Positions 10,314 to 58,204 of a stretch of DNA of 64,000 nt are shown piece by piece. Made by a program: the position numbers and the translations under genes. Numbering within the stretch: the first letter of the stretch is position 1; each line of letters opens with the position of its first letter. The stretch comes from Patescibacteria group bacterium. GTDB lineage: Bacteria > Patescibacteriota > Patescibacteriia > Patescibacteriales > Patescibacteriaceae. The notes beneath the pieces were generated by a model that was not told where the DNA came from, searched no databases, and worked only from the letters and a program-made list of their open reading frames with translations. Location of the stretch: assembly GCA_028704945.1 (NCBI GenBank), contig JAQWEL010000003.1, forward strand, positions 8,037 through 72,036, written 5' to 3'.

Positions 10314-10628
10314 ATGGCTAAGATTGCAGTAATCAAGACTGGCGGCAAGCAATACAAAGTGAAAGAAGGCCAAGCTATTAAAATCGAAAAATTAGACGGT
10401 GAAATTGGTTCCGAAGTTAAATTTGAAACTTTATTACTTGGAGACTCTGAAACCGGTGACATGACTTTGGGCAAGCCTTCGTTGGGCGAAAAAGTTGAAG
10501 CTAAGATTTTGGAACAAGGCAAGGCTGATAAAGTCAGCGTTATTAAATTCAAAAATAAAACTCATTACAAGAGAAATGTCGGACATCGCCAACTTTTTTC
10601 TAAAGTAGAAATTGCTAAAATCGCTTAA
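10314..10628 (+). CDS. rplU: 50S ribosomal protein L21 (bL21)
   Basis: 104 aa with MAKIAVIKTGGKQYKVKEGQ and GHRQ near the C-terminus. Confidence 0.95.
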   Translation: MAKIAVIKTGGKQYKVKEGQAIKIEKLDGEIGSEVKFETLLLGDSETGDMTLGKPSLGEKVEAKILEQGKADKVSVIKFKNKTHYKRNVGHRQLFSKVEIAKIA

Positions 10629-10750: not shown

Positions 10751-11365
10751 TTAATTTATTTGATTGTTTTTAAATTCACGGCGATATTGAAGAGCATGCG
10801 ATAATGTTAATTCATCGGCATAGTCAATCGATGAACCTTGAGCTAAGCCTCTGGCTAATCTGGTAATGCGGATATTGCTCGCTGATAAGATGCGTTGTAA
10901 ATAAAGACAAGTTGTTTCTCCCTCAAGATCGGGGTTGAGCGCCAAGATAATTTCTTTAATTTGGTTGCTTGAGATTTTGTGAGTTAATGAGGAAATATTT
11001 AGGTCAGCCGGATTGATATCTTTGATAGTGTTTAGAGTCCCTCCTAAGACATGATATAGCCCGTGATACTGATTGGTGTTTTCAATCGCTAAGACGTCTT
11101 TAGTTTCAGCAACGATGCATAGGTTGCTTTGATCTCGCCGTTTATCTGAGCAGATATGGCAAGGTGAGGCGCTGGCAATCGAATGGCAAACGGAACAGAC
11201 GGTCAAATCACTTTTTAAATTAGTAATAGCGTTCGCTAAGTCGTTTAAGTATAATTGATCTTTATTAAGCAAACTTAACACAAACCTTTCGGCAGTCTTT
11301 GGACCGACCGAAGGCCATCTGGTTAGAAGTTCAATTAATTTTTGGATAGACTGCGGGTAACGCAT
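10751..11365 (-). CDS. recR: recombination protein RecR
   Basis: 204 aa with LPSVGPKTAERF-type HhH (RWPSVGPKTAERF), a C4 zinc finger CSVCHS...CHICSD and a Toprim region. Confidence 0.95.
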   Translation of the reverse strand: MRYPQSIQKLIELLTRWPSVGPKTAERFVLSLLNKDQLYLNDLANAITNLKSDLTVCSVCHSIASASPCHICSDKRRDQSNLCIVAETKDVLAIENTNQYHGLYHVLGGTLNTIKDINPADLNISSLTHKISSNQIKEIILALNPDLEGETTCLYLQRILSASNIRITRLARGLAQGSSIDYADELTLSHALQYRREFKNNQIN

Positions 11366-23236: not shown

Positions 23237-23507
23237 AAAATAGCCCGTGAAACAAATTGTTTGTTCGCGGGTGATTTTTTAATGTCTTCCATAAATAATA
23301 GGGAAAATGATACCTAGAATAACAGAAAAAAGTACAATACGTGTGTGCACATTACCAATGACTATTGACAAGTTATTAAAAGTATGCTTTTATTTAAAAA
23401 TAATAAAGAACCTTGAAAAACAATGAAGGTTAGTAATAAATCGCAAATTAAGTATCTTAGTTTTCGGCTTATTACTAATTTTTATTCAAAATATATTGGA
23501 GTTTATT

Positions 23508-24047
23508 ATGAGCGCATCTATCAATAACCCAGAATTTGTTTCGGTAAAATTAACGACTGAACAAATAAATTCCATAGTTGAAAAACTTGGTGGTTATGAA
23601 AAAACTCTCGCGTTTTTGCAGGAAGAACCTCAAACAACAACCATCAATCATATCATTGATTGTAACGCCAATCCGTATATTCCAATGGGTTTGACTGTGG
23701 TGGAACATAAGCCAGGCGGATTATTTGAGTTTGACCCGTCAAAAATTTACCTGTATCTGTCTGAAGCGCAAAAAAGTGGCGTTATCAACGGAAATAATTT
23801 AAGAAAATTGTTAGCTGACAAGCCGGTCTTAAACGCTAACGTTCTTGATTATTTACTGGCTCATCCGGAAATTATTCCCGAAGATTGGAAAGGTAAATAT
23901 ATCTTTTTCTGGGGAACGCTTTACCGCTACTCGAATGGCAATCTTTTTGTTCGTTACCTCTACTGGAACGGTTCGAAGTGGAGCTGGAGCTACGGCTGGC
24001 TTGGTGACGAGTTCGATGTCGATTGCCCTGCTGTTCTCGCAAGTTGA
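23508..24047 (+). CDS. DGR target protein (small, no signal peptide) with a C-terminal variable region
   Basis: GGAG RBS 7 nt before the ATG at 23508. The 179-aa protein ends ...IFFWGTLYRYSNGNLFVRYLYWNGSKWSWSYGWLGDEFDVDCPAVLAS, and its last 40 codons form the VR. Confidence 0.85.
   Translation: MSASINNPEFVSVKLTTEQINSIVEKLGGYEKTLAFLQEEPQTTTINHIIDCNANPYIPMGLTVVEHKPGGLFEFDPSKIYLYLSEAQKSGVINGNNLRKLLADKPVLNANVLDYLLAHPEIIPEDWKGKYIFFWGTLYRYSNGNLFVRYLYWNGSKWSWSYGWLGDEFDVDCPAVLAS
23924..24042 (+). repeat. DGR variable region (VR)
   Basis: It aligns gap-free over 119 nt with 24371-24489. The 9 differences are T,T,T,G,G,G,G,G,G opposite template A. Confidence 0.85.
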
Positions 24048-24087
24048 TTTTTGTAACTTAGATCTTTGCTCTTTGGCTTTTACCCTT

Positions 24088-24120
24088 AGATCTTGAAATG
24101 TATAGTACATTCCAAGATCT
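24088..24120 (+). terminator. 15-bp hairpin downstream of the VR (terminator and/or DGR homing-associated structure)
   Basis: AGATCTTGAAATGTA-tag-TACATTCCAAGATCT has one mismatch and is followed by ATTTTTT. The motif CTTAGATCT is also repeated at 24057-24065 and 24085-24093. Confidence 0.55.
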
Positions 24121-24370
24121 ATTTTTTACACAAAATTATGTTAAGATAAAATTGATTAAGGTTAATTTGTGGTTGGTTATGGCTGACCACGACCATAATT
24201 AATATTTTTGTTTTGAGGATATTTACGGCTAAGGCTGAAAATAGAGTGAAATAAAAATATTTTACACAATGAAGAAACTTGGTTTGTGGCGCTAAGGCAT
24301 TATGATGCCGGATAAAATACAGCCCCGAGATTATTCAAGGAGCAGTGACTTAGGTGGCGCTGCAAACATT

Positions 24371-24489
24371 CCGCAACTCGAATGGCAATCTTTATGTTCG
24401 TTACCTCAACTGGAACGGTTCGAAGTGGAACTGGAACTACAACTGGCTTGATAACGAGTTCGATGTCGATTGCCCTGCTGTTCTCGCAA
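24371..24489 (+). repeat. DGR template region (TR)
   Basis: A non-coding copy of the VR that retains the AAC/AAT codons (FRNSNGNLYVRYLNWNGSKWNWNYNWLDNEFDVDCPAVLA). Homology stops abruptly at ...CTCGCAA. Confidence 0.85.
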
Positions 24490-24510: not shown

Positions 24511-24870
24511 TTATTTGGTGGGGGAGTTTTGTTTTGTTAATTGGCCGTTCCAGCCACCCAGCATGCGACCGATTTCATTTATTTTTTCCGATAAGATAAT
24601 ATATTTTTTATTATCCAAGGATTTAGTTTCCCAAAGAATCAAGAGAAAGACTTTAACAGTGTCATTTTTTCTAATGGCTATTTTTATATAGGACTGCTTT
24701 TCTTCTTTAGATAAGAACGAGGCGCTGACGATAGCTTCTATAATTTCCACCAGCAAAACGTCAATCCTGCCACCTAAAGTATAGCGATGCTCTTTGGGCA
24801 GTGTTTTGTAGTAACCATACCATAGAAAATATAGATCTTTGATTTTCTGTAATAAGGGTATTAGTTGCAA
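24511..24870 (-). CDS. four-helix-bundle protein (Avd-like DGR accessory / 23S-IVS protein family)
   Basis: 119 aa, basic, helical, with a TTG start. YTLGGRIDVLLVEIIEAIVSA...INEIGRMLGGW is typical of four-helix-bundle proteins of the Avd type. It lies between TR and RT but on the opposite strand. Confidence 0.7.
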   Translation of the reverse strand: MQLIPLLQKIKDLYFLWYGYYKTLPKEHRYTLGGRIDVLLVEIIEAIVSASFLSKEEKQSYIKIAIRKNDTVKVFLLILWETKSLDNKKYIILSEKINEIGRMLGGWNGQLTKQNSPTK

Positions 24871-24899: not shown

Positions 24900-25417
24900 A
24901 TGAAAATTTTGGATCATAAATTTGAGGAAATTATTAGTTTAGAAAATTTTTGGAAAATATTATTGAAAGTTTTAGAGACAAAGTAACTGATAATGGACTG
25001 CCTTTGGGCAATTTAACTTCGCAACTATTCTCTAATATTTATCTTAATGAATTTGATCATTTTGTTAAGCAAAAGTTTAAAATAAAATACTATATCAGAT
25101 ATGCCGATGATTTTGTAATCTTTAATTCTGATAGAGATTATTTGGTTAAGTTAATCCCATTGCTAAGTAATTTTTTAATACAAAAATTAAAATTAACCCT
25201 GCATCCGCAAAAATTGTTTATTAAAACTTTGGTTTCCGGCATAGATTTTTTAGGTTAGACGCATTTTCCCGAGCATCGTGTTTTGCGGCGAGCGACCAAA
25301 AGAAGAATGTTTAGAAAAATCAGCCTTACTTCTAGCGAAGCGACGGTTAATTCATATTGGGGATTATTGAAAAATGGAAATAGCTACAAATTAAGAAAGC
25401 AACTAAATTTGATTTAA
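24900..25417 (+). pseudogene. DGR-type reverse transcriptase, degraded (internal deletion/frameshift plus in-frame TAG)
   Basis: Three fragments were read. (1) 24900-24986, MKILDHKFEEIISLENFWKILLKVLETK*. (2) 24950-25258 in another frame, ENIIESFRDKVTDNGLPLGNLTSQLFSNIYLNEFD...YYIRYADDFVIF...GIDFLG, carrying the LPxGxxxSQ and YADD motifs. (3) After TAG at 25259-25261 the same frame continues THFPEHRVLRRATKRRMFRKI...SYWGLLKNGNSYKLRKQLNLI*. Confidence 0.8.
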
Positions 25418-44759: not shown

Positions 44760-46889
44760 ATGAACGCCTGGTCACATAAACGAAAACCAAAAATTTCAGG
44801 ACGCGGCAATGAGCGCTACAAATGGCTTGTTGTCGTTGTTTTCGTTTCATCTTTTGGCTTAATTTCCAGATTATTTTATTTGCAAGTTATTAAAGGGGAA
44901 GATTATCTTGAGGAAGCTAAAAAACAACAAGAAATTATCGATCCGATTACTCCGAAACGAGGCAGAATATTTTTTCAAGATCCTAAGTCTGACACTGGCG
45001 ATGGACTTTCACCAGTAGCTGATAATAAAGATTATTTAGAAATATTTGCCGTACCTAAAGAAATAGCTGATGAAGCTCAGGCTGATAAGTTAGCCAATGC
45101 TCTGTATGATTTTTTTAAGAAAGCTTACGTTGAAAAAGAAGTCGACCAAGCTTTGAAAGCCCAAGAAAAGGATCGATTAGAAAAATTATTAGCTCAAACT
45201 AATGATTTATCCGAAGCGGATAAGGCGCTTAAAGTTAATTCGATTAGAGCAGAACACGACAGCTTCTTGAAAGATTCTTTATATTTAGAGGCTAAGAAAA
45301 AGCGACGAGAAGAGATGATTGAAGAAAGCAAAAAAGCCATTATTGAAAAATATAAACAGTCTTTCGCTAATAAAGAAGACCAATATGAATTATTAGAAAA
45401 GAAAATAGACTATCGTCAAGCCGCTCAGTTCCATTTATCTTTACTTGATAAAAATAATTTGCCAGCTAATCTTGTGGCCGAAGATCTTGATTATTATAAT
45501 GCCTCTTTTGTTAGCAACAAAGTATCAAGCACAATTAATCATAATCCTCTGAGATTCTCAGGCATAGGTTATAAGAGCCATACTTTTAGGAATTATCCAG
45601 AAAAAAACAATGGCTCGCATCTATTAGGATTTGTTTCGTTTGAACCAGAAGATAAAGATGGTTTTTTTGGAAGGCATGGACGTTATGGGCTTGAAGGTTA
45701 TTTTGATGATATGTTGTTTGGTAAGTTTGGCGAAATGAAGGCTGAAAAAGGCCAACGAGGAACTATTATCGCTAATAATTTAGAAGTTACCAAGCAGATT
45801 GATGGCGATGATTTAATTTTAACTATTGATAGGACGATACAATTTTTTGTGTCAGAGAAGATTAAAGAAGCGACTATCAAATACGGCGCTGATTCAGGCA
45901 CAGCGATTGTTTTAGATCCTAAAACCGGTCAAGTGGTTGCTATGAGCTCTTATCCTGATTTTGATCCAAATAATTACGATGAAGTTAATAATATGGGGGT
46001 TTTTAATAACCCAGCTATTTTTGACGCCTATGAACCGGGTTCAGTTTTTAAATCTATTACCATGGCTGCTGCTTTGAATGAGGGTAAGGTGACTCCTGAC
46101 GCTACTTATAATGATGCCGGTTTCATAATGATTAACGGTTGGCCTAAACCAATTAAGAATTCTGATTTTGAGACTTACGGTGGTCATGGCCTGACTACTA
46201 TGACCGGAGTGCTGGAAAATTCTTTAAATACCGGCGCTGTTTTTGCCATGAAGAAAATTGGCGATAAAAAATTTGCCGAATATCTTAAAAAATTTGGCTT
46301 CGGTGAGAAAACAGGTATAGAATTAGAAGGAGAGTCTAAGGGTGATATCTCTAATTTAACTGGTAAAAAAATAAGAGAAATCAATGCCGTAACTGCCAGC
46401 TACGGTCAGGGGATTAATGTTACACCGCTTCAAATGGCCGCTTCTTATGCTGTTATCGCTAATGGCGGCAAATCAGTAAAACCTTATATAGTTAAGGAAA
46501 TAAGACATTTTGATGGCACCACAGAAACAATTAAGCCAGCTAATACCAATCAGATAATATCAGAATATAGCGCCAACTTACTTTCTGGTATGTTGGTTAA
46601 AGTGGTTGAAGAAGGGCATTCTAAAAAAGCTCAAGTTCCTGGATATTACATTGGGTGCAAAACAGGCACGGCTCAATATGCGGTTGAAGGTAAAAAGGGC
46701 TATGTTGAGCATAGTTATAATCACACCTTTATTTGTCTTGGCCCGGTTGGAGATCCAAAGTTTGTTGTTTTGGTTCGTTTTAAAAATCCTAAAGGTTATA
46801 CTTATGCCGACGCCACCACCGTGTCGGTTACCCAAAATATTATGCAATTTTTAGTTGATTATTGGCAGTTGCCGAAAGTTCGTAAATAA
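44760..46889 (+). CDS. ftsI: class B penicillin-binding protein (FtsI/PBP2-type transpeptidase) with a charged helical insertion
   Basis: TM anchor, then SxxK (GSVFKS), SxN (NSLNTG) and KTG (CKTGTA). A ~120-aa K/E-rich insertion lies in the N-terminal pedestal. Confidence 0.9.
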   Translation: MNAWSHKRKPKISGRGNERYKWLVVVVFVSSFGLISRLFYLQVIKGEDYLEEAKKQQEIIDPITPKRGRIFFQDPKSDTGDGLSPVADNKDYLEIFAVPKEIADEAQADKLANALYDFFKKAYVEKEVDQALKAQEKDRLEKLLAQTNDLSEADKALKVNSIRAEHDSFLKDSLYLEAKKKRREEMIEESKKAIIEKYKQSFANKEDQYELLEKKIDYRQAAQFHLSLLDKNNLPANLVAEDLDYYNASFVSNKVSSTINHNPLRFSGIGYKSHTFRNYPEKNNGSHLLGFVSFEPEDKDGFFGRHGRYGLEGYFDDMLFGKFGEMKAEKGQRGTIIANNLEVTKQIDGDDLILTIDRTIQFFVSEKIKEATIKYGADSGTAIVLDPKTGQVVAMSSYPDFDPNNYDEVNNMGVFNNPAIFDAYEPGSVFKSITMAAALNEGKVTPDATYNDAGFIMINGWPKPIKNSDFETYGGHGLTTMTGVLENSLNTGAVFAMKKIGDKKFAEYLKKFGFGEKTGIELEGESKGDISNLTGKKIREINAVTASYGQGINVTPLQMAASYAVIANGGKSVKPYIVKEIRHFDGTTETIKPANTNQIISEYSANLLSGMLVKVVEEGHSKKAQVPGYYIGCKTGTAQYAVEGKKGYVEHSYNHTFICLGPVGDPKFVVLVRFKNPKGYTYADATTVSVTQNIMQFLVDYWQLPKVRK

Positions 46890-46893
46890 ATAT

Positions 46894-48180
46894 ATGAAAA
46901 AATTATTACAACTCATTTTAAAAGTTTTAGCGAAAATTATTATTGTTAAATATAAACCATTAGTAATTGGAATTACCGGCTCAATCGGCAAAACTAGCGC
47001 TAAAGAAGCGATTGCTTCGGTTATGTCTGTTAATTATTCGGTGCGTTCGGCGCAGAAGAATTATAACAATGAAATAGGTTTGCCGTTAGTTATAGTCGGA
47101 GCAGATTCTCCAGGTAAATCGATTGGCGGTTGGTTTAAGGTTTTTAGCCATTCGTTATGCTTAATTATATTGAAGAAAAAATATCCTAAAGTATTGGTTT
47201 TAGAAATGGGGATTGATAGGCCGGGTGATATGGATTATTTGTTGTCTATTATTAAGCTTGATGTGGCTGTTTTAACTTATATCGGTTCAAGCCACTTAGT
47301 TAATTTTAAGAATAAAAAGAAATTGGTTGAGGAAAAAATGAAAATTTTTAAAGGTTTGAAAAAAGGTGGTTTAGCCATTGCTAATATTGACTCAGATTTA
47401 GTTAAACAATCAATCGGCCTAATCAAAAATCATTTGATAACTTATGGATTAACAGGCATTGCCGATGTATCGGCTGGTGAAATTAATTATTCTTCGGTTA
47501 AAGCGGGCGATATAAATAATTTAGCCGGTATAAATTTTAAGATTTTATATCAAGATGCCATTATTCCTGTCCATTTGCCAGATGTTGTCGGCGTGCCGGC
47601 AGTCTATGCAGCCTTAGCTGCTGCTGCTGTCGGATTGTCTAAAGATATAGACGGAATAGCTGTTTCCGAAGCTCTGAATAAAATTGAATTCCCTAAAGGT
47701 AGAACAAAGTTGATTTCTGGGATTAAAGACACTGTTATAATTGACGATACTTATAATGCCGCGCCTCAATCGGTACAAGCCGCTCTTGATATTATTAATG
47801 AAATCAGAATGGCAAATATTGGGCGCAAGTGGATAGTGCTGGGCGATATGTTGGAGCTGGGTGAAGAAACTGAAAAGAGTCATTTGGATATTGGTATTAA
47901 GGTCGGTAAAATGCCTAGAGCCAGATTGATTTACCTTGGCGAAAACGCTCATTATTATGGTATTGGCGCCAGGAAAGTAGGCATGGCTGAAGATCGTATC
48001 CAGTCTTTTAACAATCATGAGGAAATAATTGATTATTTAAAAGAGAATATTGAACCAGGAGATTTAATTTTAGTTAAAGGCTCTCAGGGCGCGAGGATGG
48101 AAAAGATTGTTAAAGCGATTATGCAAAATTCTCAAGCAGCTAAACATTTGTTAGTTAGGCAAAGTGATGATTGGTTGTAA
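46894..48180 (+). CDS. murF: UDP-MurNAc-tripeptide--D-Ala-D-Ala ligase
   Basis: ITGSIGKTSAKEAIA, NNEIGLPL and IDDTYNAAPQS. ATG at 46894 was used. Confidence 0.9.
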   Translation: MKKLLQLILKVLAKIIIVKYKPLVIGITGSIGKTSAKEAIASVMSVNYSVRSAQKNYNNEIGLPLVIVGADSPGKSIGGWFKVFSHSLCLIILKKKYPKVLVLEMGIDRPGDMDYLLSIIKLDVAVLTYIGSSHLVNFKNKKKLVEEKMKIFKGLKKGGLAIANIDSDLVKQSIGLIKNHLITYGLTGIADVSAGEINYSSVKAGDINNLAGINFKILYQDAIIPVHLPDVVGVPAVYAALAAAAVGLSKDIDGIAVSEALNKIEFPKGRTKLISGIKDTVIIDDTYNAAPQSVQAALDIINEIRMANIGRKWIVLGDMLELGEETEKSHLDIGIKVGKMPRARLIYLGENAHYYGIGARKVGMAEDRIQSFNNHEEIIDYLKENIEPGDLILVKGSQGARMEKIVKAIMQNSQAAKHLLVRQSDDWL

Positions 48181-48276
48181 TATAGTCTTGACAGTTTGGT
48201 TATAAAGGATTATAGCAAAGTATTCAGATTATATAAGAAAAAAATTGTACTTTTAAAATAAAGAAAGGAGCCACTA

Positions 48277-48936
48277 ATGATTGCCATAATCATACAGGCT
48301 ATATATTGGTATTTTTTGTCCATCCTTTTAGCTGCGCTTGAGATTGAGATAGAAGGAAAGCATGGCTGGGCCTATAAATTACCCACTTGGTATCGTAAAA
48401 ACAGTTTTGTCGCCCTCTTATACGGACTGACAACTGGCGGAAAACCGCTAACTGGTTACTTTACATTTATGTTTATTTTCTTGTTGTCTGTTTTTCACAC
48501 CCAATTTTTTATGGGTAAAGAATGGACACTGGCTAATGAATTTTCAGTATTGGCGATTTTTTTCTTAATCTGCCCTTACTGGGATTTTCTTTGGTTCATA
48601 CTTAATCCGCATTATGGCATAAAGCGTTTCCAAAAAAAATATATTTGGTGGCACGCTGGCAGTCTTTGGTTTTGCCATATCCCGTTGGATTATTTCCTGG
48701 GAGTGGTAATTTCTATTGCTTGTGCTTATGGCGCTAATTATCTTAACGACGATTTTGGTTCGTTTATTAACCATATCGTTGTTATCAGCCTCCTGATTGT
48801 GGTAGCAATACCAATTACTATTTTTATTATTGCTCCGCTTTATAAGAAATGGTATTGGTGGATGCGTCGTTATGATGATCGAACTATCACCACAATATTT
48901 TATGATTTGCCTGAAAAATCTGCAGGTGATGAATAA
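48277..48936 (+). CDS. polytopic membrane protein (hypothetical)
   Basis: 219 aa with about 6 hydrophobic segments. A candidate promoter is TTGACA 48188-48193, 17 nt, TATAGC 48211-48216, with an AGGAG RBS. Confidence 0.5.
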   Translation: MIAIIIQAIYWYFLSILLAALEIEIEGKHGWAYKLPTWYRKNSFVALLYGLTTGGKPLTGYFTFMFIFLLSVFHTQFFMGKEWTLANEFSVLAIFFLICPYWDFLWFILNPHYGIKRFQKKYIWWHAGSLWFCHIPLDYFLGVVISIACAYGANYLNDDFGSFINHIVVISLLIVVAIPITIFIIAPLYKKWYWWMRRYDDRTITTIFYDLPEKSAGDE

Positions 48937-48940
48937 AATT

Positions 48941-48974
48941 AAAACCCCACCTTAGTTTGAGTAGTGGGGTTTTT
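48941..48974. terminator. bidirectional intrinsic terminator between convergent genes
   Basis: AAAACCCCAC-cttagtttgagta-GTGGGGTTTT. Confidence 0.7.
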
Positions 48975-48997
48975 GATTAATTGGATAGGTTGCAAAG

Positions 48998-49360
48998 TTA
49001 TATTTGCAGATTGAATATTTCGTTGAATTTTTCTCGGAAACGACTGGGTCTGTCGGATTTGATATAATGAGCTTGTATTTCTTCTTCGGTCGGAGGATGA
49101 TTGACTTCTTGTCCGGTATAGTAAATGTTTTCCGAGCTATATATTTCTTCCATCTGTATCGCCAGATATAATTCCTGAGGTCTTATTTCCGGGCAAGTTT
49201 CAAAGATTAACGCAAATTGATCCTTGATTGAGGCGCAGTAAAATTCATCTTTTTCGTCGTTAGTTAATTTACGACTTCCTAAAATTTCAGCCAATTCAAT
49301 CTTCTGATAGCTGATTTTTTGCAGAGCGGTAGCTATCGCTCTAACTTTCTCGGTAACCAT
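48998..49360 (-). CDS. hypothetical cytoplasmic protein
   Basis: Start reassigned to MVTEKVRAIA (ATG 49360), which has an AAAGGA RBS. The ORF-track start at 49429 falls inside the -35 of its own promoter. Confidence 0.5.
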   Translation of the reverse strand: MVTEKVRAIATALQKISYQKIELAEILGSRKLTNDEKDEFYCASIKDQFALIFETCPEIRPQELYLAIQMEEIYSSENIYYTGQEVNHPPTEEEIQAHYIKSDRPSRFREKFNEIFNLQI

Positions 49361-49400
49361 CGCAGTATCCTTTATTAATTTTTGAAAAAAACTATATATA

Positions 49401-49429
49401 ATAATAACATAAAAATATATATTTGTCAA
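49401..49429 (-). promoter_or_regulatory. sigma70-type promoter for 49360..48998
   Basis: The minus strand reads TTGACA (49429-49424), a 17-nt spacer, then TATTAT (49406-49401). Confidence 0.5.
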
Positions 49430-49542
49430 TAGTTGCTGAACATAATAATCTTTGATATTGACATTTAGCTTAAAATATGATTTTATATTAGCATAAATTT
49501 AGTACATTACTAATTCATTTTATCATCTTTCAGGAGTTTGTC

Positions 49543-50007
49543 ATGGATATTTTGCAGCTCATCTCCGCCGGCCAAGATATTACTATTAAAGCCTGTGACG
49601 GACAACGCACCATTGCTAAAGCAAAAGAATTGTTTACCGGTTTTCTTGACGCCGACTTTGAAAATTGGAATTTAGACAAACCAGGTAAAGCCACACCGGC
49701 CACTAAGGCCAAGGTCTACGAACTTCGTCAAGATGCTACCTTCAAACAGATGTTTGAATCCTTAAACCCGGACTTAGACAAACTATGTCTGACGCAAGCT
49801 CAAATCATCGCCTTCATTGAAGATTGTCGAGACTGGTTAAGAACAAAAGGTTACGGAACATTTTTCCTCTTTAAGGAGAATGAAGAATATTTTGTTGCCA
49901 CCGTGCACTTTCGTTCGTCCGGCGGACTCCGGGTTCTCGTCGACAAACTTAGGGCTCGCCACAGCTGGACTGCTGACGGTCGGCATCGTCTTGTTCTTGT
50001 GGTTTAG
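49543..50007 (+). CDS. small cytoplasmic protein, paralog class of the DGR target, with a VR-like A-depleted C-terminal tail
   Basis: AGGAG RBS. 154 aa ending ...TFFLFKENEEYFVATVHFRSSGGLRVLVDKLRARHSWTADGRHRLVLVV. Its 3' flank shares two conserved blocks with the flank of 23508..24047. Confidence 0.6.
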   Translation: MDILQLISAGQDITIKACDGQRTIAKAKELFTGFLDADFENWNLDKPGKATPATKAKVYELRQDATFKQMFESLNPDLDKLCLTQAQIIAFIEDCRDWLRTKGYGTFFLFKENEEYFVATVHFRSSGGLRVLVDKLRARHSWTADGRHRLVLVV

Positions 50008-50063
50008 TAACTGTAGGTTCTTTGATACTTACTCAAGATGATCCTTAGACTCTTGGAAACTTT

Positions 50064-50101
50064 GTCCCTTAAACGCTTATTGGCATTTGAGGGACTTTTT
50101 T
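50064..50101 (+). terminator. intrinsic terminator after 49543..50007
   Basis: GTCCCTTA-16 nt-TGAGGGAC followed by TTTTTTTATTTT. Confidence 0.6.
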
Positions 50102-50163
50102 TATTTTACTTCTTTCGTCAAACTGACGAATTGTCCGATTCCCCGTGATAAGTCATCTAATAC

Positions 50164-50191
50164 AAAAAACAGGCAACATTGCCTGTTTTTT
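50164..50191. terminator. bidirectional hairpin terminator downstream of tRNA-Glu
   Basis: AAAAAACAGGC-aacatt-GCCTGTTTTTT. Confidence 0.65.
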
Positions 50192-50200
50192 GTATTACTG

Positions 50201-50272
50201 TAGCCCGTAGGAGAGTCGGACTCCTCTTACCAGGATGAGAACCTGATGTCCTAGCCGATAGACGAACGGGCC
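50201..50272 (-). tRNA. tRNA-Glu (anticodon CUC)
   Basis: Hand-folded from the reverse complement GGCCCGUUCGUCUAUCGGCUAGGACAUCAGGUUCUCAUCCUGGUAAGAGGAGUCCGACUCUCCUACGGGCUA. Acceptor GGCCCGU/ACGGGCU, and anticodon stem UCAGG/CCUGG with loop UUCUCAU. The T arm AGGAG-UCCGACU-CUCCU has an unusual C at the normally U55 position. No CCA is encoded. Confidence 0.75.
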
Positions 50273-50332
50273 AAATACTTGTATAGAATAATGCAAAATA
50301 AAGATGATGTCAACTCTCTAAAAAATTAAATA

Positions 50333-51268
50333 TTAGCCAAGAAATTTACCAATATCGTCTCTATGCCCGTTAATAAAGGCTTCGGAAGAGGTTTCGTTTT
50401 TACCTTCTAATTTTAAAATATCAACGACAATTGAATCTTTACCGCATTGGATAGCTAATTTGTTATTGTAAACGAAAGTTTTACCCGGCTTATAAGTATT
50501 TAAAGGCAGTATTTCTGGAGAAGTGGATATTATTTTAAGTTGTTGGCCATTTAACCAAGTCCAAGCGCTAGGCCAAGGCGAAAAAGCTCGGACTTTTCTT
50601 TCTATTAATTCAGCTGCTTCAGTCCAGTCAATTAAACCATCTTGTTTTTTAATCAAACCGACATAGCTGGCTTGAGTATTGTCTTGCGCTAATGGCTTGA
50701 TTTCGCCTTTAATATAATTTTTAATGGTTGGTAAAATGATTTTGGCGCCTAAGTCAGCTAATTTATTTGATAAACTGCCAGCGGTTTCTGAAGGCTTTAA
50801 ATCGTATTCAGCTTGGGTCAGAATTGGACCGGTGTCCAAGCCTTTTTCCATCATCATAATAGTAACACCGGTTTTATCATCGCCATTAATAATTGGCGCT
50901 TGAATCACACCAGCCCCACGATATTTAGGCAAAAGTGAACCATGAACATTAATACAACCATAACGCGGAATATTCAAGATAGATTCAGGGATTAATTGAG
51001 CATAAGCGGCCACTACGATAATATCAGGTTGTAAGTTCTTTATTTCTTCAACAATTTGACTGATTTTTTCTGGTTGCAAAACAGTATAGTTTAGTTCAAG
51101 CGCTGTTTTTTTAACGGCTGATTCTTTATTCGTCAAACCGCGCCCAGCCGGCATATCAGGCTGAGTAATAACTGCTACAATATTAAAATCAGTGTCCCTA
51201 GTTAGCGCCTTAAGGGCGGGGACAGCAAAATCAGGCGTGCCTATAAAAATGGTTCGGATAGCAGTCAT
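50333..51268 (-). CDS. fmt: methionyl-tRNA formyltransferase
   Basis: IFIGTPDFAVPAL, INVHGSLLPKYRGAGVIQ and a C-terminal domain. It is adjacent to def. Confidence 0.95.
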   Translation of the reverse strand: MTAIRTIFIGTPDFAVPALKALTRDTDFNIVAVITQPDMPAGRGLTNKESAVKKTALELNYTVLQPEKISQIVEEIKNLQPDIIVVAAYAQLIPESILNIPRYGCINVHGSLLPKYRGAGVIQAPIINGDDKTGVTIMMMEKGLDTGPILTQAEYDLKPSETAGSLSNKLADLGAKIILPTIKNYIKGEIKPLAQDNTQASYVGLIKKQDGLIDWTEAAELIERKVRAFSPWPSAWTWLNGQQLKIISTSPEILPLNTYKPGKTFVYNNKLAIQCGKDSIVVDILKLEGKNETSSEAFINGHRDDIGKFLG

Positions 51269-51269
51269 A

Positions 51270-51743
51270 TTACATGGCGTAGTTTTTAGCTATATCTTTA
51301 GCTTTATCAATAAATAAAATTCCATCCAAATGATCAATCTCATGCTGGATGACTCTAGCTAAAAGACCAGAAGCTTCTATTTTTTGTTTTTGTCCAGCTC
51401 TGTCAAAAAATTGGCAATGGACTGTTTTATGTCGTTTAACTTGACCCCAAGTGTTAGGCACAGACAGGCAGCCTTCCTCATCCCAATCTTTAGTTAATGA
51501 TTTTTTGGTTATTTCCGGGTTTAACATCGCTAACGGGCCTTGTTTGGTATTAACAGTTATGACTCTGATATTTTCACCAACCTGAGGGGCGGCTAAACCG
51601 ACTCCGTCTTTAGCGATCATTGTTTCAACCATATTGTCTAAAAATTTGCCAAAGTCCTTGTCGGTGACAGCTTTTAAACTCACTTTGTCTGACAACTGAC
51701 GTAATCTTTTGTCAGGTTCAATTAGGATTGATAATATTGACAT
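51270..51743 (-). CDS. def: peptide deformylase
   Basis: GVGLAAPQVG, EGCLSVP and QHEIDHLDG motifs. Confidence 0.95.
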   Translation of the reverse strand: MSILSILIEPDKRLRQLSDKVSLKAVTDKDFGKFLDNMVETMIAKDGVGLAAPQVGENIRVITVNTKQGPLAMLNPEITKKSLTKDWDEEGCLSVPNTWGQVKRHKTVHCQFFDRAGQKQKIEASGLLARVIQHEIDHLDGILFIDKAKDIAKNYAM

Positions 51744-51833
51744 ATAATTATTATTTTGTTATAAATTATATCACCTTTATAGTACATTTTAAATAAAAAA
51801 ACAAGTTTTATTAATTTTTTGGGGGAAGTAATA

Positions 51834-52250
51834 ATGACTAAATCAAGCAGATCAACCGTTATTTGCAAAGATGCTGTTTTGGTAACAGACATTTGGGATA
51901 ATAGAATTTTAGATAATGTGGAATATAAAATGGTTAATCCGTCAATTAATGATGTTTTAACTGATTATTACTCTGCAGAATCCAGCGACTATTGTTCCTT
52001 GGCTTCAATTAGAATAATATCCGAATCAAGCGAAAAGTCTTCGTCTATTATAATTTTAAAGATATCACACAGCAGAGAGATTCGCTTAAAACTCATCAGC
52101 AAGGGTGATATTTTTTGTAAAGAAACCAGCAACGATGGCCAGACACTGACAATCAGACGAAAACCAGGAGCAACTTCAATAAACAAATTTGTAGGCATAG
52201 ACACAATAATTCTAAAAAAGGATTCTCAAGAAATAACTTTGACAAAGTAA
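51834..52250 (+). CDS. hypothetical protein
   Basis: GGGGGA RBS 6 nt before the ATG at 51834. 138 aa with no recognised motif. Confidence 0.45.
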   Translation: MTKSSRSTVICKDAVLVTDIWDNRILDNVEYKMVNPSINDVLTDYYSAESSDYCSLASIRIISESSEKSSSIIILKISHSREIRLKLISKGDIFCKETSNDGQTLTIRRKPGATSINKFVGIDTIILKKDSQEITLTK

Positions 52251-52272
52251 CCAAAAAAAGAATAAAATAACA

Positions 52273-52302
52273 GGGAAGCAAAAAAATAAGCTTCCCTTTT
52301 TT
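52273..52302 (+). terminator. intrinsic terminator
   Basis: GGGAAGC-aaaaaaataa-GCTTCCC followed by TTTTTT. Confidence 0.65.
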
Positions 52303-52308
52303 ATAACT

Positions 52309-52578
52309 ATGAGTTCTGAATTTGAAAATTTAAAAGATATTTTTGCCAAGCGTTTGAGTGAGAAAAAGGTTAAACCCCCAACTTATTCTTGGCAGGACTT
52401 ATCTTTACAAATTATTAAAGATTTAAAGATACCTGGTTTTAAGCGTTCCAGTGTTTTTAAGATATGTAAAGAATATCCGAGAGAGGTGGTTGAGCGAGCT
52501 GTTAACGATACTAAAGAATTATGTCAGTCAGGCGAGCAATGGAAATATTTTTTTAAGGTTATAAATAATTTACATTAA
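52309..52578 (+). CDS. hypothetical small protein
   Basis: 89 aa, basic, with no recognised motif. Confidence 0.4.
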   Translation: MSSEFENLKDIFAKRLSEKKVKPPTYSWQDLSLQIIKDLKIPGFKRSSVFKICKEYPREVVERAVNDTKELCQSGEQWKYFFKVINNLH

Positions 52579-52679
52579 TAAAAAATTATTTATAAATTAG
52601 CTTGACTTTTGGCTTCATTTATGATTTGATAATAACAGTTATTTTTAAATGTTATCACTATCTTAAGAGGAGAAGAATA

Positions 52680-53057
52680 ATGCGATTAATGCAATTTTTA
52701 ACCAAGTATTCAGGCGTTCAAGGTCTTGACGTTCTGGAAACCGCTAATCCTGCGGATGGAGTAAAAGTTTCTAACGAAGAAATTTTTAAAAGCATTGATC
52801 CTAATCTGGATTATTTATGCACAACGCCAGACTCAATCAATGAGTTTATGAAAAAGTGTTCTCAGTGCATAATTGCCCCGTTGCCAACGTTTTTCTTAGT
52901 AAAGAATACTTATTCCTGGATTAAAGGAAAGTATTTGATTGCCAGAGCAACTTTGACCGGGGCAAGAATTCCGGATATTATTTATCGTGCGCTTGACTCA
53001 GATTGTATATTTCCTGAATCAAGCGGTGGCAGACGCATCGTTGTTCCAACCTTTTGA
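52680..53057 (+). CDS. small cytoplasmic protein, paralog of 49543..50007
   Basis: AGGAGA RBS before the ATG at 52680. It aligns with 49543..50007 through IDPNLDYLCTTPDSINEFMKKC / LNPDLDKLCLTQAQIIAFIEDC, TFFLVK / TFFLFK and RRIVVP / HRLVLV. Confidence 0.5.
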   Translation: MRLMQFLTKYSGVQGLDVLETANPADGVKVSNEEIFKSIDPNLDYLCTTPDSINEFMKKCSQCIIAPLPTFFLVKNTYSWIKGKYLIARATLTGARIPDIIYRALDSDCIFPESSGGRRIVVPTF

Positions 53058-53103
53058 AAGTAATCTAAAAATCCTTTTTAGCTGAATATAGCAAAAAAGG
53101 ATT

Positions 53104-53877
53104 TTATTTTATATCCAAGATAGCCCAACCAACTCCAGCTGGACTTTCATAATTTAATAATTTTGGCTTCATCGACATTTCCTCTAAGGAGCCTAATAAG
53201 ATTAAAGACGTTTTTAAACCACATTCTTTTACTTCTTCAATCAAATTACTGTCTAATTTTATTATTTCTTTGGCTGAGTTAGTTTCAATTGCTTTAATAA
53301 TCCGCTTATCAAACCAGCGGGCTTTAGGATTATAGCCGAGTGGTGAATTTTTGTTTAAACGATGGGACAGGTCGCCCGACGAAATGATTGCAATTCTTTT
53401 TTCATTTTCCCTTGCTAACCGTCCTAATGTCCGACCGAATTGGTAATGTTTTTCTAAGCTTAAATCAGAAGTATAGATTGGCAAAAGTTTGATTTTTTTA
53501 TCCTGGCAGTAGGCTAAGGGAACAGCTGTGCCATAGTCAAGAGTGTGTCCGCTCATGGTTCGGCAATCGTCCGGCACGTCATCAATAATCGTTTTTATTA
53601 AACCAAGCTCTCCCTTAAAAGAAAGGTTTGTTTCTAAGTCGCCAAATTCTTTAAAATCACTAATAAATTCAGTTTCTGTGTTTAAGCCAAAATAATTTTT
53701 AAAGTAAGATCCGTGATGTGATAGAACAATCAAAATATCAGGTTTAGATTGCGCCAAAGAACTAAAAAAATCATTAAGAGCTTTTAGCGTTTTAGAAAAT
53801 TCTTGGGCATGTTGTCTGGCTTGAGCTGGCAACAGGATAGGTGAATGCGGCACAACGCCGGCGTGGACAAAACTCAT
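53104..53877 (-). CDS. LigB/Memo-like class III extradiol dioxygenase-fold protein
   Basis: MSFVHAGVVPHSPILLP, VLSHHGS and IISSGDLSHRL. ATG at 53877 was used, 4 nt after the upstream stop. Confidence 0.6.
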   Translation of the reverse strand: MSFVHAGVVPHSPILLPAQARQHAQEFSKTLKALNDFFSSLAQSKPDILIVLSHHGSYFKNYFGLNTETEFISDFKEFGDLETNLSFKGELGLIKTIIDDVPDDCRTMSGHTLDYGTAVPLAYCQDKKIKLLPIYTSDLSLEKHYQFGRTLGRLARENEKRIAIISSGDLSHRLNKNSPLGYNPKARWFDKRIIKAIETNSAKEIIKLDSNLIEEVKECGLKTSLILLGSLEEMSMKPKLLNYESPAGVGWAILDIK

Positions 53878-53881
53878 ATTT

Positions 53882-55279
53882 TTATTGGGTGGCGCTAACT
53901 GGGCTGCCAATCGGATAGGTTAAGAAAAGTTTTTGTGGTATTTCAATGATATTTTCTTTTTTATAGCCCATATCATTAAATGTATCAGTTGAATCTATCG
54001 GCCTTAAGGCACCAGCTTCAACTATGTAAATACCGAAGCCGCCTTTAATCTTTATCAGCTCGCCATCAGAAAATTTAATTGAACTGACCGTTGGATATTT
54101 ATTCAATTCGGCCGTGCTTACTTTGATAATCTTTTTGTTTTTAAATTTAAGTTTCAGGAATATCGCGTCAGGAATAGGGGCTTTGGTTTTAGCCTCAACC
54201 CAAAATACTCCACCAGTCTTTTTGTCTTGCAATAAAGCCCCAGTCGGATAAGCATCATCAGCCGTAATAGAGGGAGCGTCAAGATAAGATTGCAAGTCTT
54301 CCCAGGAAGCATTAAGTATTTCTTCTGGATTATAACCTAATTTTTTAAAGGCTTCTTTATCGACAAAACCTCTTTTTTTATTATCAACCAACAAGAATAA
54401 TGATCCTGATGGACTTTTGACTATCGCATATTGTGGAAACTTAATCGGAGTGCCAATTGAATAGGAGAGTAAATCAGCTTTGTCGATAGTAACTACTTTA
54501 TTAATATCAAATCTTGAGGTCAAGGCGCCTTTGCTTAAGAAAGCGCGTCTTTTTCCGTCCTGTAAAAGCCAAACGCCTGGTTCGCCGGCAACTTGGACTA
54601 AATTTCCATTAGTATAAGATTTTGAAAAGTAACGGCGCCATAGTTTCCAAAAATTATAATTACCATTATAAACATGAGGGGTATAGTTGTATAAAGCAGC
54701 TGTACCATTATTGGCAATAGTGACATCAACAGTATCTTTAACTGTTGTGGAATAAGGGTTGGTAAAAGTATAGGTTTCGCCTTTTTTAAATTTATATAAC
54801 TGAGGATTATCTAAGTAATCTCTGAATTGCAACGAGGCCGAATTAACTTGTTTCCAAAATCCGCGCCAACGATCATTACAACCACCGCCGTCAGGACAGC
54901 CATAACCGGTGGCCCAATCCAGCGCCGATGTCTTGGGGTTAGAGTCTTCTATTAAACCTTGTTCTTTCTGTAATAGAACTAATAAAAAGCGGGGATTAAC
55001 TTTATTGGTTTGAGCAATATTATAAATTGCTTGGGCAGCTTTCCAATATAAACCATCTTTATCAACGCAAGTAAAATTTGTAAGTCCAGAATTGTGAGCG
55101 CTCAAGAAATTTTGGATTTGCGTCATATCCATTGTATTATAATCAGTAATATCATAATCAGAGATGATATAATTAGGATTAAAATCTGGGTCTGGTTGAG
55201 CGGCTTTGGCTAATATTGGGCTAAAAAATATGATAGCCAAAATTAAAAAATAGGCGCTTGGATAACGAGTTAGTGTCAT
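53882..55279 (-). CDS. secreted protein, possibly cell-wall-hydrolase-like N-terminal domain
   Basis: Signal peptide ending ...ILAKAAQP. RFLLVLLQKEQGL resembles glycoside-hydrolase/lysin segments. The C-terminal part is repeat-like. The functional call is weak. Confidence 0.5.
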   Translation of the reverse strand: MTLTRYPSAYFLILAIIFFSPILAKAAQPDPDFNPNYIISDYDITDYNTMDMTQIQNFLSAHNSGLTNFTCVDKDGLYWKAAQAIYNIAQTNKVNPRFLLVLLQKEQGLIEDSNPKTSALDWATGYGCPDGGGCNDRWRGFWKQVNSASLQFRDYLDNPQLYKFKKGETYTFTNPYSTTVKDTVDVTIANNGTAALYNYTPHVYNGNYNFWKLWRRYFSKSYTNGNLVQVAGEPGVWLLQDGKRRAFLSKGALTSRFDINKVVTIDKADLLSYSIGTPIKFPQYAIVKSPSGSLFLLVDNKKRGFVDKEAFKKLGYNPEEILNASWEDLQSYLDAPSITADDAYPTGALLQDKKTGGVFWVEAKTKAPIPDAIFLKLKFKNKKIIKVSTAELNKYPTVSSIKFSDGELIKIKGGFGIYIVEAGALRPIDSTDTFNDMGYKKENIIEIPQKLFLTYPIGSPVSATQ

Positions 55280-55337
55280 ATATGTATTTTTTCTTTTATA
55301 ATAACAAATTTTTAAAATTTTTCCAATTTATTTATAT

Positions 55338-55349
55338 TGTCATTCCGAA
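55338..55349. repeat. copy 1 of the 12-nt direct repeat TGTCATTCCGAA
   Basis: It is identical to 55456-55467 and is followed by CGAAGC..., the hairpin ATCCGCC-n9-GGCGGAT, and AGCGAAAG. Confidence 0.5.
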
Positions 55350-55455
55350 CGAAGCAATCCGCCTCCGCCAGTTGGCGGATAGCGAAAGCACTCCGCCCAG
55401 GCTGGATCATAATTCATAAAAGTTATCTATGGGTATGTTTTTTAAATACAGTCAG

Positions 55456-55467
55456 TGTCATTCCGAA
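55456..55467. repeat. copy 2 of the 12-nt direct repeat TGTCATTCCGAA
   Basis: It is followed by AGTAGCGTAGCGAAGAGAGGAATCGC. ATTCC...GGAAT can pair. Confidence 0.5.
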
Positions 55468-55500
55468 AGTAGCGTAGCGAAGAGAGGAATCGCTCTTATT

Positions 55501-55530
55501 AAAACAAGCTCCAATAATGAAGCTTGTTTT
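55501..55530 (-). terminator. clpB intrinsic terminator
   Basis: AAAACAAGCT-ccaataatga-AGCTTGTTTT, 17 nt downstream of the clpB stop. Confidence 0.7.
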
Positions 55531-55546
55531 AGTATATGGAAATATT

Positions 55547-58204
55547 TTATTTAACCGCCATTTCAATCTTGCCGGCTAAGCCGAGATTGATTACCACTTG
55601 ATCGCCTTCTTTAATTTTTCCTTCAATTATGTCCATGGCTAATTCGTCCAAAATAAATTCTTGAATTTTCCGCTTTAACGGCCTAGCGCCAAAGGTTTGA
55701 TCGTAGCCTTTATCAGTTAACATCTCTTTAACCTTTTTAGCGATTTTAATCTTAATATCTTTATTCTTTAAGCGACTTTCAACTTTAGTTAACTCAAGAT
55801 CGACAATAGCTGCTAAGTCTTCTTTTGATAAGCTTTTAAAAACAACTGTTTCATCGATACGATTTAAAAATTCAAGTTTGAAATGCTGTCTAAGCGTCTT
55901 ATTAATTTTATCTTTCATTTCTTCAGCCTTAGTTTCAGCTACCTTTTTTTTGTCAGTTGTGTCAGCAAAGCCAATGGAATAATCTTGGATAATCTGATTA
56001 CCAAGGTTAGAAGTCATAATGATGATGGTGTTCTTAAAATTGACAGTTCGTCCCTTTGAATCAGTCAGTTGGCCGTCATCTAAGATTTGTAAGAGTATAT
56101 TAAAGACTTCTGGATGAGCTTTTTCTATTTCATCAAACAGAATAACACTGTATGGTTTACGGCGAATTTTATCAGTCAGCTGTCCACCTTCGTCATGTCC
56201 AATATAGCCAGGCGGTGAGCCGATTAATTTAGCCACCGAATGTTTTTCCATAAATTCGCTCATGTCGACACGAACTAAAGATTGTTCGTCATTAAACATA
56301 AAAGCGGCAATAGCTTTAGCTAATTCAGTCTTGCCGACTCCGGTCGGACCGACAAACATAAATGAGCCAATCGGCTTATTTTCTTCACCGATGCCGGCTC
56401 GGCTTCGTCTGATGGCATTAGAAACGGCTTTAATAGCGTCAGCTTGTCCAACAATACGTTGGCTTAGCTCGTTTTCCAGCCTAGCTAATTTTTTAAGTTC
56501 AGATTCCAACATTTTAGTGACTGGAATGCCAGTCCATTTAGCTATTACTTTAGCAATGTCTTCAGCGGTTATTTCTTCTTTTAATATTTTTTGACCGTTA
56601 GATTGCAGTTTGGAAAGTTCTGCTTCAAATTCTTTGATACTTTTTTGCAATTCTGGGATGCGTCCATAGCGTATTTCGGCCACCTTAGCCAAGTCTTCGC
56701 CGTCTCGTTCAGAGATTTCTGCTGTTGCTTTTAATTTATCAATCTGTTGTTTATGATCGCGAATTTTAGCAATTACTGCTTTTTCATTCTGCCAATGCAA
56801 ATCAAGCTGATAAGTTTTTTCTTTTATTTTAGACAGCTTGGAATTGACGGTACGCAGCTTAGCTGATGCTTTCTTTTGCTCCAATTCAGAATTAGCCGAC
56901 TTTAATTCTTGCTCAACGCCAGCTTTGGCAATTTCCATACGACGCAATTCACGTTTTAAGGCATCAAGCTCGTCTGGACAGGAATCTATTTCCATTCGTA
57001 GCGAGGAGCAAGCTTCATCCATTAAATCAACTGCTTTGTCTGGCAGAAAACGATCGCTAATATAACGATGCGATAAAGTTACGGCTGCCAATAGAGCCGA
57101 ATCAGTTATTTTGACACCATGATGAACCTCATATTTTTCCTTGATGCCACGCATAATGTCAGTAGCATCTTCTAAAGATGGTTCAGACACATAAACTGGC
57201 TGAAAACGTCTTTCCAGGGCCGAATCTTTCTCAATGTGTTGCTGATATTCTTTAGTGGTGGTAGCGCCAATGGTGATAATTTCTCCGCGGGCTAAGGCCG
57301 GTTTAAGCATGTTCGAAGCATCCATTGCTCCATCAGAAGCGCCAGCCCCGACAATAGTGTGTAACTCATCGATAAATAATATTATTTTTCCTTCAGAAGC
57401 TTTAATTTCTTTTAAGACGGCTTTTAGGCGTTCTTCAAATTCGCCTCTGAATTTTGTTCCGGCAATCAAGGCACCTAAATCTAAGCTGACTAAGGTTTTG
57501 TTCTTTAAAGTTTCTGGAATATCGCCAGCAATAATCCTTTGAGCTAAGCCTTCAACGATAGCTGTCTTGCCTGTGCCGGCTTCACCAATAAGGACAGGAT
57601 TATTCTTAAGACGACGCGACAAGACTTGCATTATTCTTCTAATTTCTTCATCGCGGCCGATAACAGGATCTAATTTTCCTGTTTCCGCCAATTTGGTTAA
57701 GTTGATAGTATATTTTTCCAAGACACGAAATTTATTTTCTGGAGTGGCTGAGTCAATATTGGTGTTGCCACGCAAATCTTTCAAAACTAAAAGAGTCTGG
57801 TCATAGTCAATGCCAAAACCAGCTAAAATATTTTTAGCTTTAGTTTTAATTTCTAATGAGGCTAACAGGATGTGTTCAGTGGAAATAAATTCATCACCCA
57901 TCTTAGCTGCTTCGTTAGTCGAAGCGGTCATGATATCAGCCATTTCAGAGGTGCCTTGAATCATGCCTAAACTGACTTCAACTTTTATTTTAGGCAGTTT
58001 TTCTATTTCATTTTCACATTTTTCAATCACGATTTCAGGGTGAATCTTAAAGTGTTCCAAAATAGAACGCACAATGCTATCGGGTTGTTCAATTAAAGCA
58101 ACCAGCATGTGCAGAGAACCGATATGTTGTTGGCCGAATTCTTGAGCGACTATTTGAGCGCTTATAATAGCTTCTTGAGCTTTGTTAGTAAATTTATCCA
58201 TCAT
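55547..58204 (-). CDS. clpB: ClpB disaggregase (Hsp100, two AAA+ modules plus M-domain)
   Basis: 885 aa with [31 protein letters not shown], a long coiled-coil M-domain, [26 protein letters not shown] and GARPLKR. Confidence 0.95.

Follow-up and report, generated by a model that had tools for sequence, protein, structure and literature searches.

Introduction

Targets of diversity-generating retroelements (DGRs) can lie far from the retroelement that serves them: 73 non-adjacent targets have been assigned to 45 of 372 DGRs (Wu et al., 2018; PMC5758913), and the same survey lists seven extra, non-adjacent targets for the DGR of Treponema denticola. DGRs of the candidate phyla radiation (CPR) tend to have one target, remote targets having been found only in another lineage, and six classes of variable regions (VRs) from CPR genomes, UVR1-6, are without assignment (Wu et al., 2018). 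VRs have been regarded as systematically of the C-type lectin kind (Roux et al., 2021; PMC8144416). Here we analyze PHR00_02210, the gene formed by the open reading frame (ORF) at positions 49543-50007 of a 64-kb stretch of DNA from a Patescibacteria metagenome-assembled genome (MAG); the whole stretch is called the window below, and positions refer to it. The original prediction, made from the letters of this DNA, was that the 3' end of the ORF is a DGR target with a template that is elsewhere or lost. This is supported by pairs of VR and template repeat (TR) in homologs, by base composition, by divergence at adenine columns and by the absence of a template from the window. The tail of the ORF (its last ~38 codons) is very probably a genuine, DGR-written VR. 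Our best explanation as a whole, to which we give a probability of about 0.6, is that PHR00_02210 is an orphan DGR target whose template lies outside the window, likely in a second DGR of the same MAG.

The closest likeness is to the remote targets of Treponema denticola, since the gene is a paralogous target with a C-terminal VR, far from TR, avd and reverse transcriptase (RT), presumably served in trans, while other paralogs sit in a cassette. Unlike in Treponema, the defining TR match is absent for the window gene, both from the 64 kb and from 41 TRs of its family. With CPR DGRs (UVR1-6, likened here by their description, and clade 2 of Roux et al., 2021) the family shares the host group and small target proteins without known domains, and its relatives have the same target-TR-avd-RT cassette with a Pfam RVT_1 RT and the accessory protein bAvd; the window gene differs from such cassettes in standing alone. 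As in Mtd of Bordetella phage BPP-1 and TvpA of Treponema, the VR is C-terminal, and variability falls on codons with TR adenines (AAY-type) with a conserved scaffold between them. In contrast to the C-type lectin folds of Mtd and TvpA, the model of the orphan protein has no lectin neighbour in the PDB, and its variable residues alternate along beta-strands. The assignment of the window gene to a known kind of system, orphan VRs with a template elsewhere, is supported.

Results and Discussion

Base composition of the tail

The window has a G+C content of 36%, and 104 nt of it contain on average 31.7 A (standard deviation 6.6) and 37.4 G+C (standard deviation 7.1). Positions 49901-50004 contain A12 C31 G31 T30 (A 11.5%, G+C 60%), so that the earlier hand count was exact; for 49906-50004 the count is A12 C29 G29 T29. 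Only 0.0016% of all 104-nt segments in the 64 kb have both at most 12 A and at least 62 G+C, and when the limits are relaxed to at most 13 A and at least 60 G+C, positions 49890-50008 still form the sole cluster on either strand. Comparable GC spikes, which would speak against a DGR origin if they were frequent, are thus not common in the window.

Adenine is low at all three codon positions of the last 33 codons (4, 6 and 2 of 33, versus 36, 44 and 34 of 121 in the remaining gene), and this loss of adenine, irrespective of codon position, is the composition signal. The original prediction had also stressed codons of the type NNC. Their number in these codons was counted correctly as 11 of 33, but with 35 of 121 elsewhere in the gene there is no enrichment, and the argument carries no weight.

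A family of DGR targets with VR/TR pairs

PHR00_02210 is a short-form member of a DGR target family of Patescibacteria. Its 86 detectable homologs all come from Patescibacteria-type sources, and none has a Pfam domain; the closest ones are 84, 63 and 59% identical to it. A Pfam search with 26 aligned family members gave chance-level matches only, and none for PHR00_02210 itself. The ORF, its translation and the protein tail HFRSSGGLRVLVDKLRARHSWTADGRHRLVLVV are as originally described. The family alignment is conserved in the ordinary way over its N-terminal two thirds. Variable positions occur only in the C-terminal ~38 residues, where they alternate with a fixed scaffold, and at none of them is a single residue found in as many as 50% of the members (consensus FVAxVxVxSxGxLxVxVxRFxxxxVWxAExRxRLVVPQL).

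For the DNA of relatives, we used 138 loci from species-representative genomes and metagenomes, which hold 139 gene copies with a complete C-terminus. We counted as a TR a further copy of the tail within the locus that shows at most 4 non-adenine and at least 3 adenine mismatches per 80 nt. By this definition, 48 of the 139 copies have a TR partner. In 42 of the 48, the start of the TR is 423-534 nt downstream of the VR probe, and in one the TR is found 1.4 kb downstream; in the remaining 5 it lies ~2 kb upstream, the gene being a second target behind the RT. The alignments for L005, L016 and L021 are textbook VR/TR pairs with an AAC-rich TR. In L005 and L007, the TR is followed by bAvd on the opposite strand and then by an RT of 329-343 aa, and the complete L007 cassette consists of a long target, TR, avd, RT and a short target of 157 aa. 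These observations make the family a bona fide DGR target family.

The composition of the tail has its counterpart in these relatives. In 80-nt probes, family TRs contain 27.6% A and 50.1% G+C, the VRs linked to cassettes 11.8% A and 60.5% G+C, and the copies without TR in the retrieved DNA 14.4% A and 57.4% G+C. An A-poor, GC-rich tail is found across more than 50 homologs, in genomes that range from 27 to 57% GC. As the exchange of template adenines for any base lowers A and raises G+C, the anomaly of the tail is the expected footprint of adenine mutagenesis.

For 91 of the 139 copies, no TR was found in the retrieved DNA, which extends at least 1 kb downstream for 64 of them and at least 5 kb to both sides for 30. 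Several such orphan VRs without TR within 10 kb can nevertheless be matched to a TR of another assembly, with 12-21 mismatches per 80 nt, all of them at adenines and 0 elsewhere: L001, L071 and L072 pair with the TRs of L005 and L016, and L037 and L120 with the TRs of L034 and L043 (L037 and L043 are two bins of one co-assembly). The lack of any non-adenine mismatch shows that adenine mutagenesis did produce these orphan VRs, from a template that is not close by, and the fit across assemblies indicates that family TR sequences are conserved across species-level genomes.

Two loci merit separate mention. In L048, VR and TR (10346-10450 and 10797-10901) are equal over 105 nt, without a single adenine substitution, the target being newly reset or never diversified. 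L069, the closest relative for which DNA is available (59% identity), has two tandem targets on an 843-nt contig, with VRs at 22-152 and 545-675 that differ at 14 codons, mostly at codon positions 1 and 2. Homology between the two L069 targets stops at GTGGTAGTCCC, where the templated segment of this subfamily ends on its 3' side.

Comparison of the window gene with family templates

The boundaries of VR and TR were taken from six cassette-linked relatives (L003, L005, L009, L016, L021 and L066), and the window gene was aligned to the 41 unique TRs. It has the consensus base in 7 of the 26 columns with TR adenine, versus 43 of the 61 remaining columns (Fisher p = 2.9e-4), in a test that rests on the family consensus and not on the TR of the window gene itself. 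Agreement at the non-adenine columns is lower for the window gene (70%) than for cassette-linked VRs (90%), which fits its place in a divergent subfamily (see above for the identities of its closest relatives). Searches of the window with blastn-short and tblastn returned no second copy of the segment.

Two Logan contigs of the read archive SRR22315502 are 100% identical to the window, L140 over 46126-49557 and L139 over 50237-56135. L140 breaks off 15 nt downstream of the start of the orphan ORF, L139 within the tRNA-Glu gene, and the VR is outside their coverage. As judged by these contig ends, the assembly of that sample treats the gene with its 3' flank like a repeat or a variable stretch.

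Paralogs in the same MAG

Two paralogs of the window gene are found on one other contig of the MAG, 109,682 bp in length: PHR00_03640 (P0087), which encodes 189 aa with an N-terminal hydrophobic helix, and PHR00_03655 (P0002), which encodes 153 aa. Both belong to the 90%-identity cluster of the closest homolog. By locus tags, two genes lie between them, and this spacing is the arrangement of the L007 cassette. The products of the tags from PHR00_03640 to PHR00_03655 have the GenBank accessions MDD4412710.1 to MDD4412713.1. The window copy and PHR00_03655 have neither signal nor anchor.

Divergence between the window protein and its paralogs is concentrated in the VR. Before the VR, 6 of 116 residues differ (95% identical), versus 18 of 35 inside it (49%; p = 3e-9). 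Within the VR, differences occur at 14 of the 15 columns that are hypervariable in the family versus 4 of the 20 scaffold columns (p = 2e-5). Judging from these comparisons, the pattern fits that expected of paralogs that would have been diversified separately from one template.

Predicted structure

The AlphaFold (AF2) model of PHR00_02210 is confident (predicted local distance difference test, pLDDT, 94; predicted template modelling score, pTM, 0.90), and the C-terminal strand is included in the confident fold. Foldseek searches against PDB and BFVD reached a best E-value of 0.1 with template modelling (TM) scores of at most 0.25 and had no lectin in the top 50, and a profile search of PDB sequences with the orphan family returned nothing, so that these searches did not find a C-type lectin fold around the VR. 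Their sensitivity is limited: a control with the model of a second DGR target in the window, described below (pLDDT 92), had mostly C-type lectin domains among its top matches, and these were weak (E 0.1-1.2, TM 0.42-0.47).

According to DSSP, the alternating variable positions of the model lie on the strands 115-123 and 129-135 and in the loop 136-140. The model suggests that they could form one exposed face, which should be taken as a lead and not as a result. The product of PHR00_02210 is most likely a binding protein.

A model and its alternatives

The relatives show the mechanism of the family. An A-rich TR is transcribed, the DGR RT, together with bAvd, copies it with misincorporation opposite template adenines, and the cDNA takes the place of the 3' end of the target gene. 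A TR with ~28% A and 50% GC thereby becomes a VR with ~12% A and 60% GC, which is exactly the anomaly of the tail. The window copy would be a non-adjacent orphan paralog, with its template neither in the local TR 25 kb away nor elsewhere in the 64-kb window. The most likely source of the template would be a putative second DGR on the other contig of the MAG, with the layout target-TR-avd-RT-target2, in which PHR00_03640 and PHR00_03655 would be the targets, and PHR00_02210 would be, or would until recently have been, a target served in trans. It is an even bet that the window gene is a trans target of this particular cassette and is still competent.

Several findings weigh against this explanation. 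To begin with, a matching template did not turn up where we looked for it. An A-tolerant ungapped scan of both strands of the window, which does recover the local VR/TR pair, gave a best placement of the segment with 34 non-adenine mismatches per 131 nt, which is noise; the earlier statement that the local TR fails to match the segment holds. Among the 41 unique family TRs, none is cognate to the window VR, the best having 15 non-adenine mismatches per 80 nt. The second DGR is itself a reconstruction: PHR00_03645 and PHR00_03650 would be avd and RT, as judged from gene count and layout only. Searches with the L007 RT and with the RT remnant of the window (>8000 and 1957 matches) gave, for each, 120 listed matches of which none belongs to the 109,682-bp contig. 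Two short RT matches on Logan contigs of ~2.4 kb stem from other samples. In scans for the DNA of the paralog contig, the best match among GTDB genomes was 55% identical, a first scan of metagenomes found nothing, and a second found only relatives of at most 55% identity. P0087 and P0002 are identical from ILxLISAGQ to the C-terminus, VR included, which one would not expect of an active DGR and which may stem from the way a repeat was assembled, from a recent gene conversion or from inactivity. The sole RT in the window is a remnant, with an intact bAvd beside it. Finally, the window copy departs from its family in the VR and at its 3' end. Before Trp142 it has Ser in place of a Val that is nearly invariant in the family, two codons (6 nt, CTTGTT) are inserted, the boundary reads TAGTAACTG where the family has CCGCAACTG, a possible decay of the homing end, and GTGGTT is followed by TAG-TAA-CTG-TAG, where relatives continue with CCG-CAA-CTG to complete V-V-P-Q-L, the end of VR/TR homology.

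Most of these points are shared by the alternative that survives best, a frozen relic. Here the tail would also have been written by a DGR, in the past, on a copy that was duplicated off the cassette and is no longer a substrate for homing, so that it now undergoes ordinary mutation, either through decay of the 3' recognition end or for want of a working RT or TR. The altered 3' end with its insertion and three in-frame stops within seven codons, the Val to Ser change in the scaffold, the mere remnant of an RT in the window and the identical VRs of the paralogs on the cassette side, which hint at no ongoing diversification in this genome, all speak for a relic, as does the lack of a TR in the retrieved DNA for two thirds of the family copies. 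On the other hand, the unusual 3' end (GTAACTGTAG...) is shared with L068 at the DNA level, the TAGTAACTG boundary and the 6-nt insertion in part, and the early stop also occurs in P0002 and P0003, which marks the unusual end as a trait of the subfamily and not as fresh decay. Moreover, the copy retains 11 of the 12 scaffold residues that the family conserves, its model has the high confidence given above, and the ORF and its signals are intact. The Ser codon, AGC, could be reached from an AAC template codon, so that a non-adenine change would not be required. We consider a relic a serious possibility, if short of probable. Whether the gene is a remote live target or a frozen relic stands at roughly even odds.

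A cause of the composition other than a DGR, be it chance, horizontal transfer of a patch, overlap with another gene or RNA structure, is very unlikely. Small ORFs do overlap the tail on both strands, and there are weak hairpins at 49971-49990. However, the same tail recurs in the more than 50 homologs despite the wide GC range of their genomes and is templated by TRs in relatives; in the window it has no Rfam match and is the only such stretch. The idea that the local DGR, with its TR at 24372-24489, serves the tail is favoured by their distance of 25 kb on one contig and a loose S-x-G-x-L-x-V resemblance, but it can be dismissed almost entirely, given the lack of nucleotide similarity to that TR, the negligible profile similarity reported below, the different fold neighbours of the two proteins and the truncation of the local RT.

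Implications

About two thirds of the family copies do not lie beside a template, which bears on how frequent trans action is in very small genomes, and also on how often variable genes outlive their retroelement. A bolder generalization, which we put forward only tentatively and think rather unlikely, is that the family represents a DGR scaffold outside the C-type lectins that is widespread in Patescibacteria, with a variable beta-hairpin face plus loop, no solved structural relative and most copies off-cassette, some of the orphan VRs fitting TRs of other assemblies at all non-adenine positions. If this is true, CPR DGRs would routinely serve dispersed families of multi-copy genes in trans, contrary to the single-target CPR DGRs of Wu et al. 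(2018) and, for the VR fold, to the systematic C-type lectin VRs of Roux et al. (2021). The confident fold without a match is in any case a lead for structural work on massive variation outside the C-type lectin scaffold.

At a practical level, an orphan VR can be recognized by composition alone, as A-depletion and a rise in GC at the 3' end of a small ORF, and the annotation of PHR00_02210 would change from hypothetical protein to DGR target paralog. With a second DGR with truncated RT in the window, this genome may document either the decay of DGRs or cassettes that share one RT.

The local DGR

The other DGR of the window (Table 1) has a target, ORF 23496-24047, from a large family with 2991 representatives. 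The original prediction had called this DGR active and had lined up its VR with the orphan tail. Neither part could be upheld. BLASTP finds nothing in that region between the local VR and the tail, and profile-profile comparison with hhalign gives a probability of 1.9%, in the register that corresponds to the S-x-G-x-L-x-V resemblance noted earlier. The label "active" does not suit an RT that is present as a remnant only. This remnant contains a TAG in frame, at 25256-25258, in the place of a Trp of its relatives, and the N-terminal half of the enzyme (~175 residues) is absent from the 64-kb window in tblastn searches with full-length L005 and L007 RTs. With these defects of its RT, the local cassette, whose TR and bAvd are intact, cannot be autonomous, and it is either decaying or dependent on an RT elsewhere in the genome. 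The local bAvd is 41% identical to the Avd of L007 (tblastn), and its arrangement is also found in the L005 and L007 cassettes. Downstream of the local VR (24048-24130), motifs and a hairpin are laid out much as in the orphan family, which is described next.

Flanking elements

The coordinates of the features are collected in Table 1.

Table 1. Features of the orphan target gene and of the local DGR in the 64-kb window.
Feature	Positions	Strand	Remarks
ORF PHR00_02210	49543..50007	+	154 aa; GenBank MDD4412437.1, hypothetical protein, on a 153-kb contig of a Patescibacteria MAG; exact match P0001
VR-equivalent segment	49888..50013	+	From the F-V-A codons to the end of VR/TR homology of cassette-linked relatives; contains 49901-50004
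DNA element GTAACTGTAGGTTCTTTGATACTTAC	50007..50032	+	Kept in the closest relatives L068 and L069 (DNA alignment, other frames); in place of the CCGCAACTG boundary, an end like that for initiation of mutagenic homing (IMH)
Intrinsic terminator hairpin GTCCCTTAAA...TTTGAGGGAC plus T-run	50064..50102	+	RNA fold of 50005-50110: -27.9 kcal/mol, z = -3.97
Promoter-like site TTGATA-18-TATGAT	49452..49481	+	Consensus match only
Ribosome-binding site AGGAG	49532-49536	+	6 nt before ATG
VR of local DGR target (ORF 23496-24047)	23925..24042	+	Nine mismatches to TR 24372-24489, all at TR adenines
Local TR	24372..24489	+	Non-cognate to 49888-50013
Local bAvd	24511..24870	-	Pfam PF22296, E = 7e-13; opposite strand to TR and RT
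RT remnant	24944..25414	+	About residues 175-333 of a ~343-aa DGR RT (tblastn with L005 and L007 RTs); Pfam RVT_1 positions 111-202 only

A promoter-like site, a ribosome-binding site, an uninterrupted ORF and a terminator are all present at PHR00_02210, and by its sequence the gene looks like an intact expression unit. The element GTAACTGTAGGTTCTTTGATACTTAC, which holds the in-frame stops TAG, TAA and TAG, may itself be a recognition element. According to the flank table, a hairpin of the type TCCCTTnGA...TCnAAGGGA-T7 is found downstream of nearly all family members. Short motifs of the CTTTG/CCTT type are likewise found in the 3' flanks of nearly all members, whether in a cassette or not (L001-L069). 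In cassette-linked loci, a TATAAT box comes right after the terminator hairpin and is plausibly the promoter of the TR transcript.

An explanation of the VR segment by an Rfam family or a tRNA was ruled out, as there is no Rfam match in it. A single tRNA, tRNA-Glu (50200-50272, minus strand), lies in the vicinity. Between it and the terminator of the orphan gene lies a 40-nt near-perfect palindrome with a AAAAAACAGGCAACATTGCCTGTTTTTT core (50158-50197), which looks like a bidirectional terminator.

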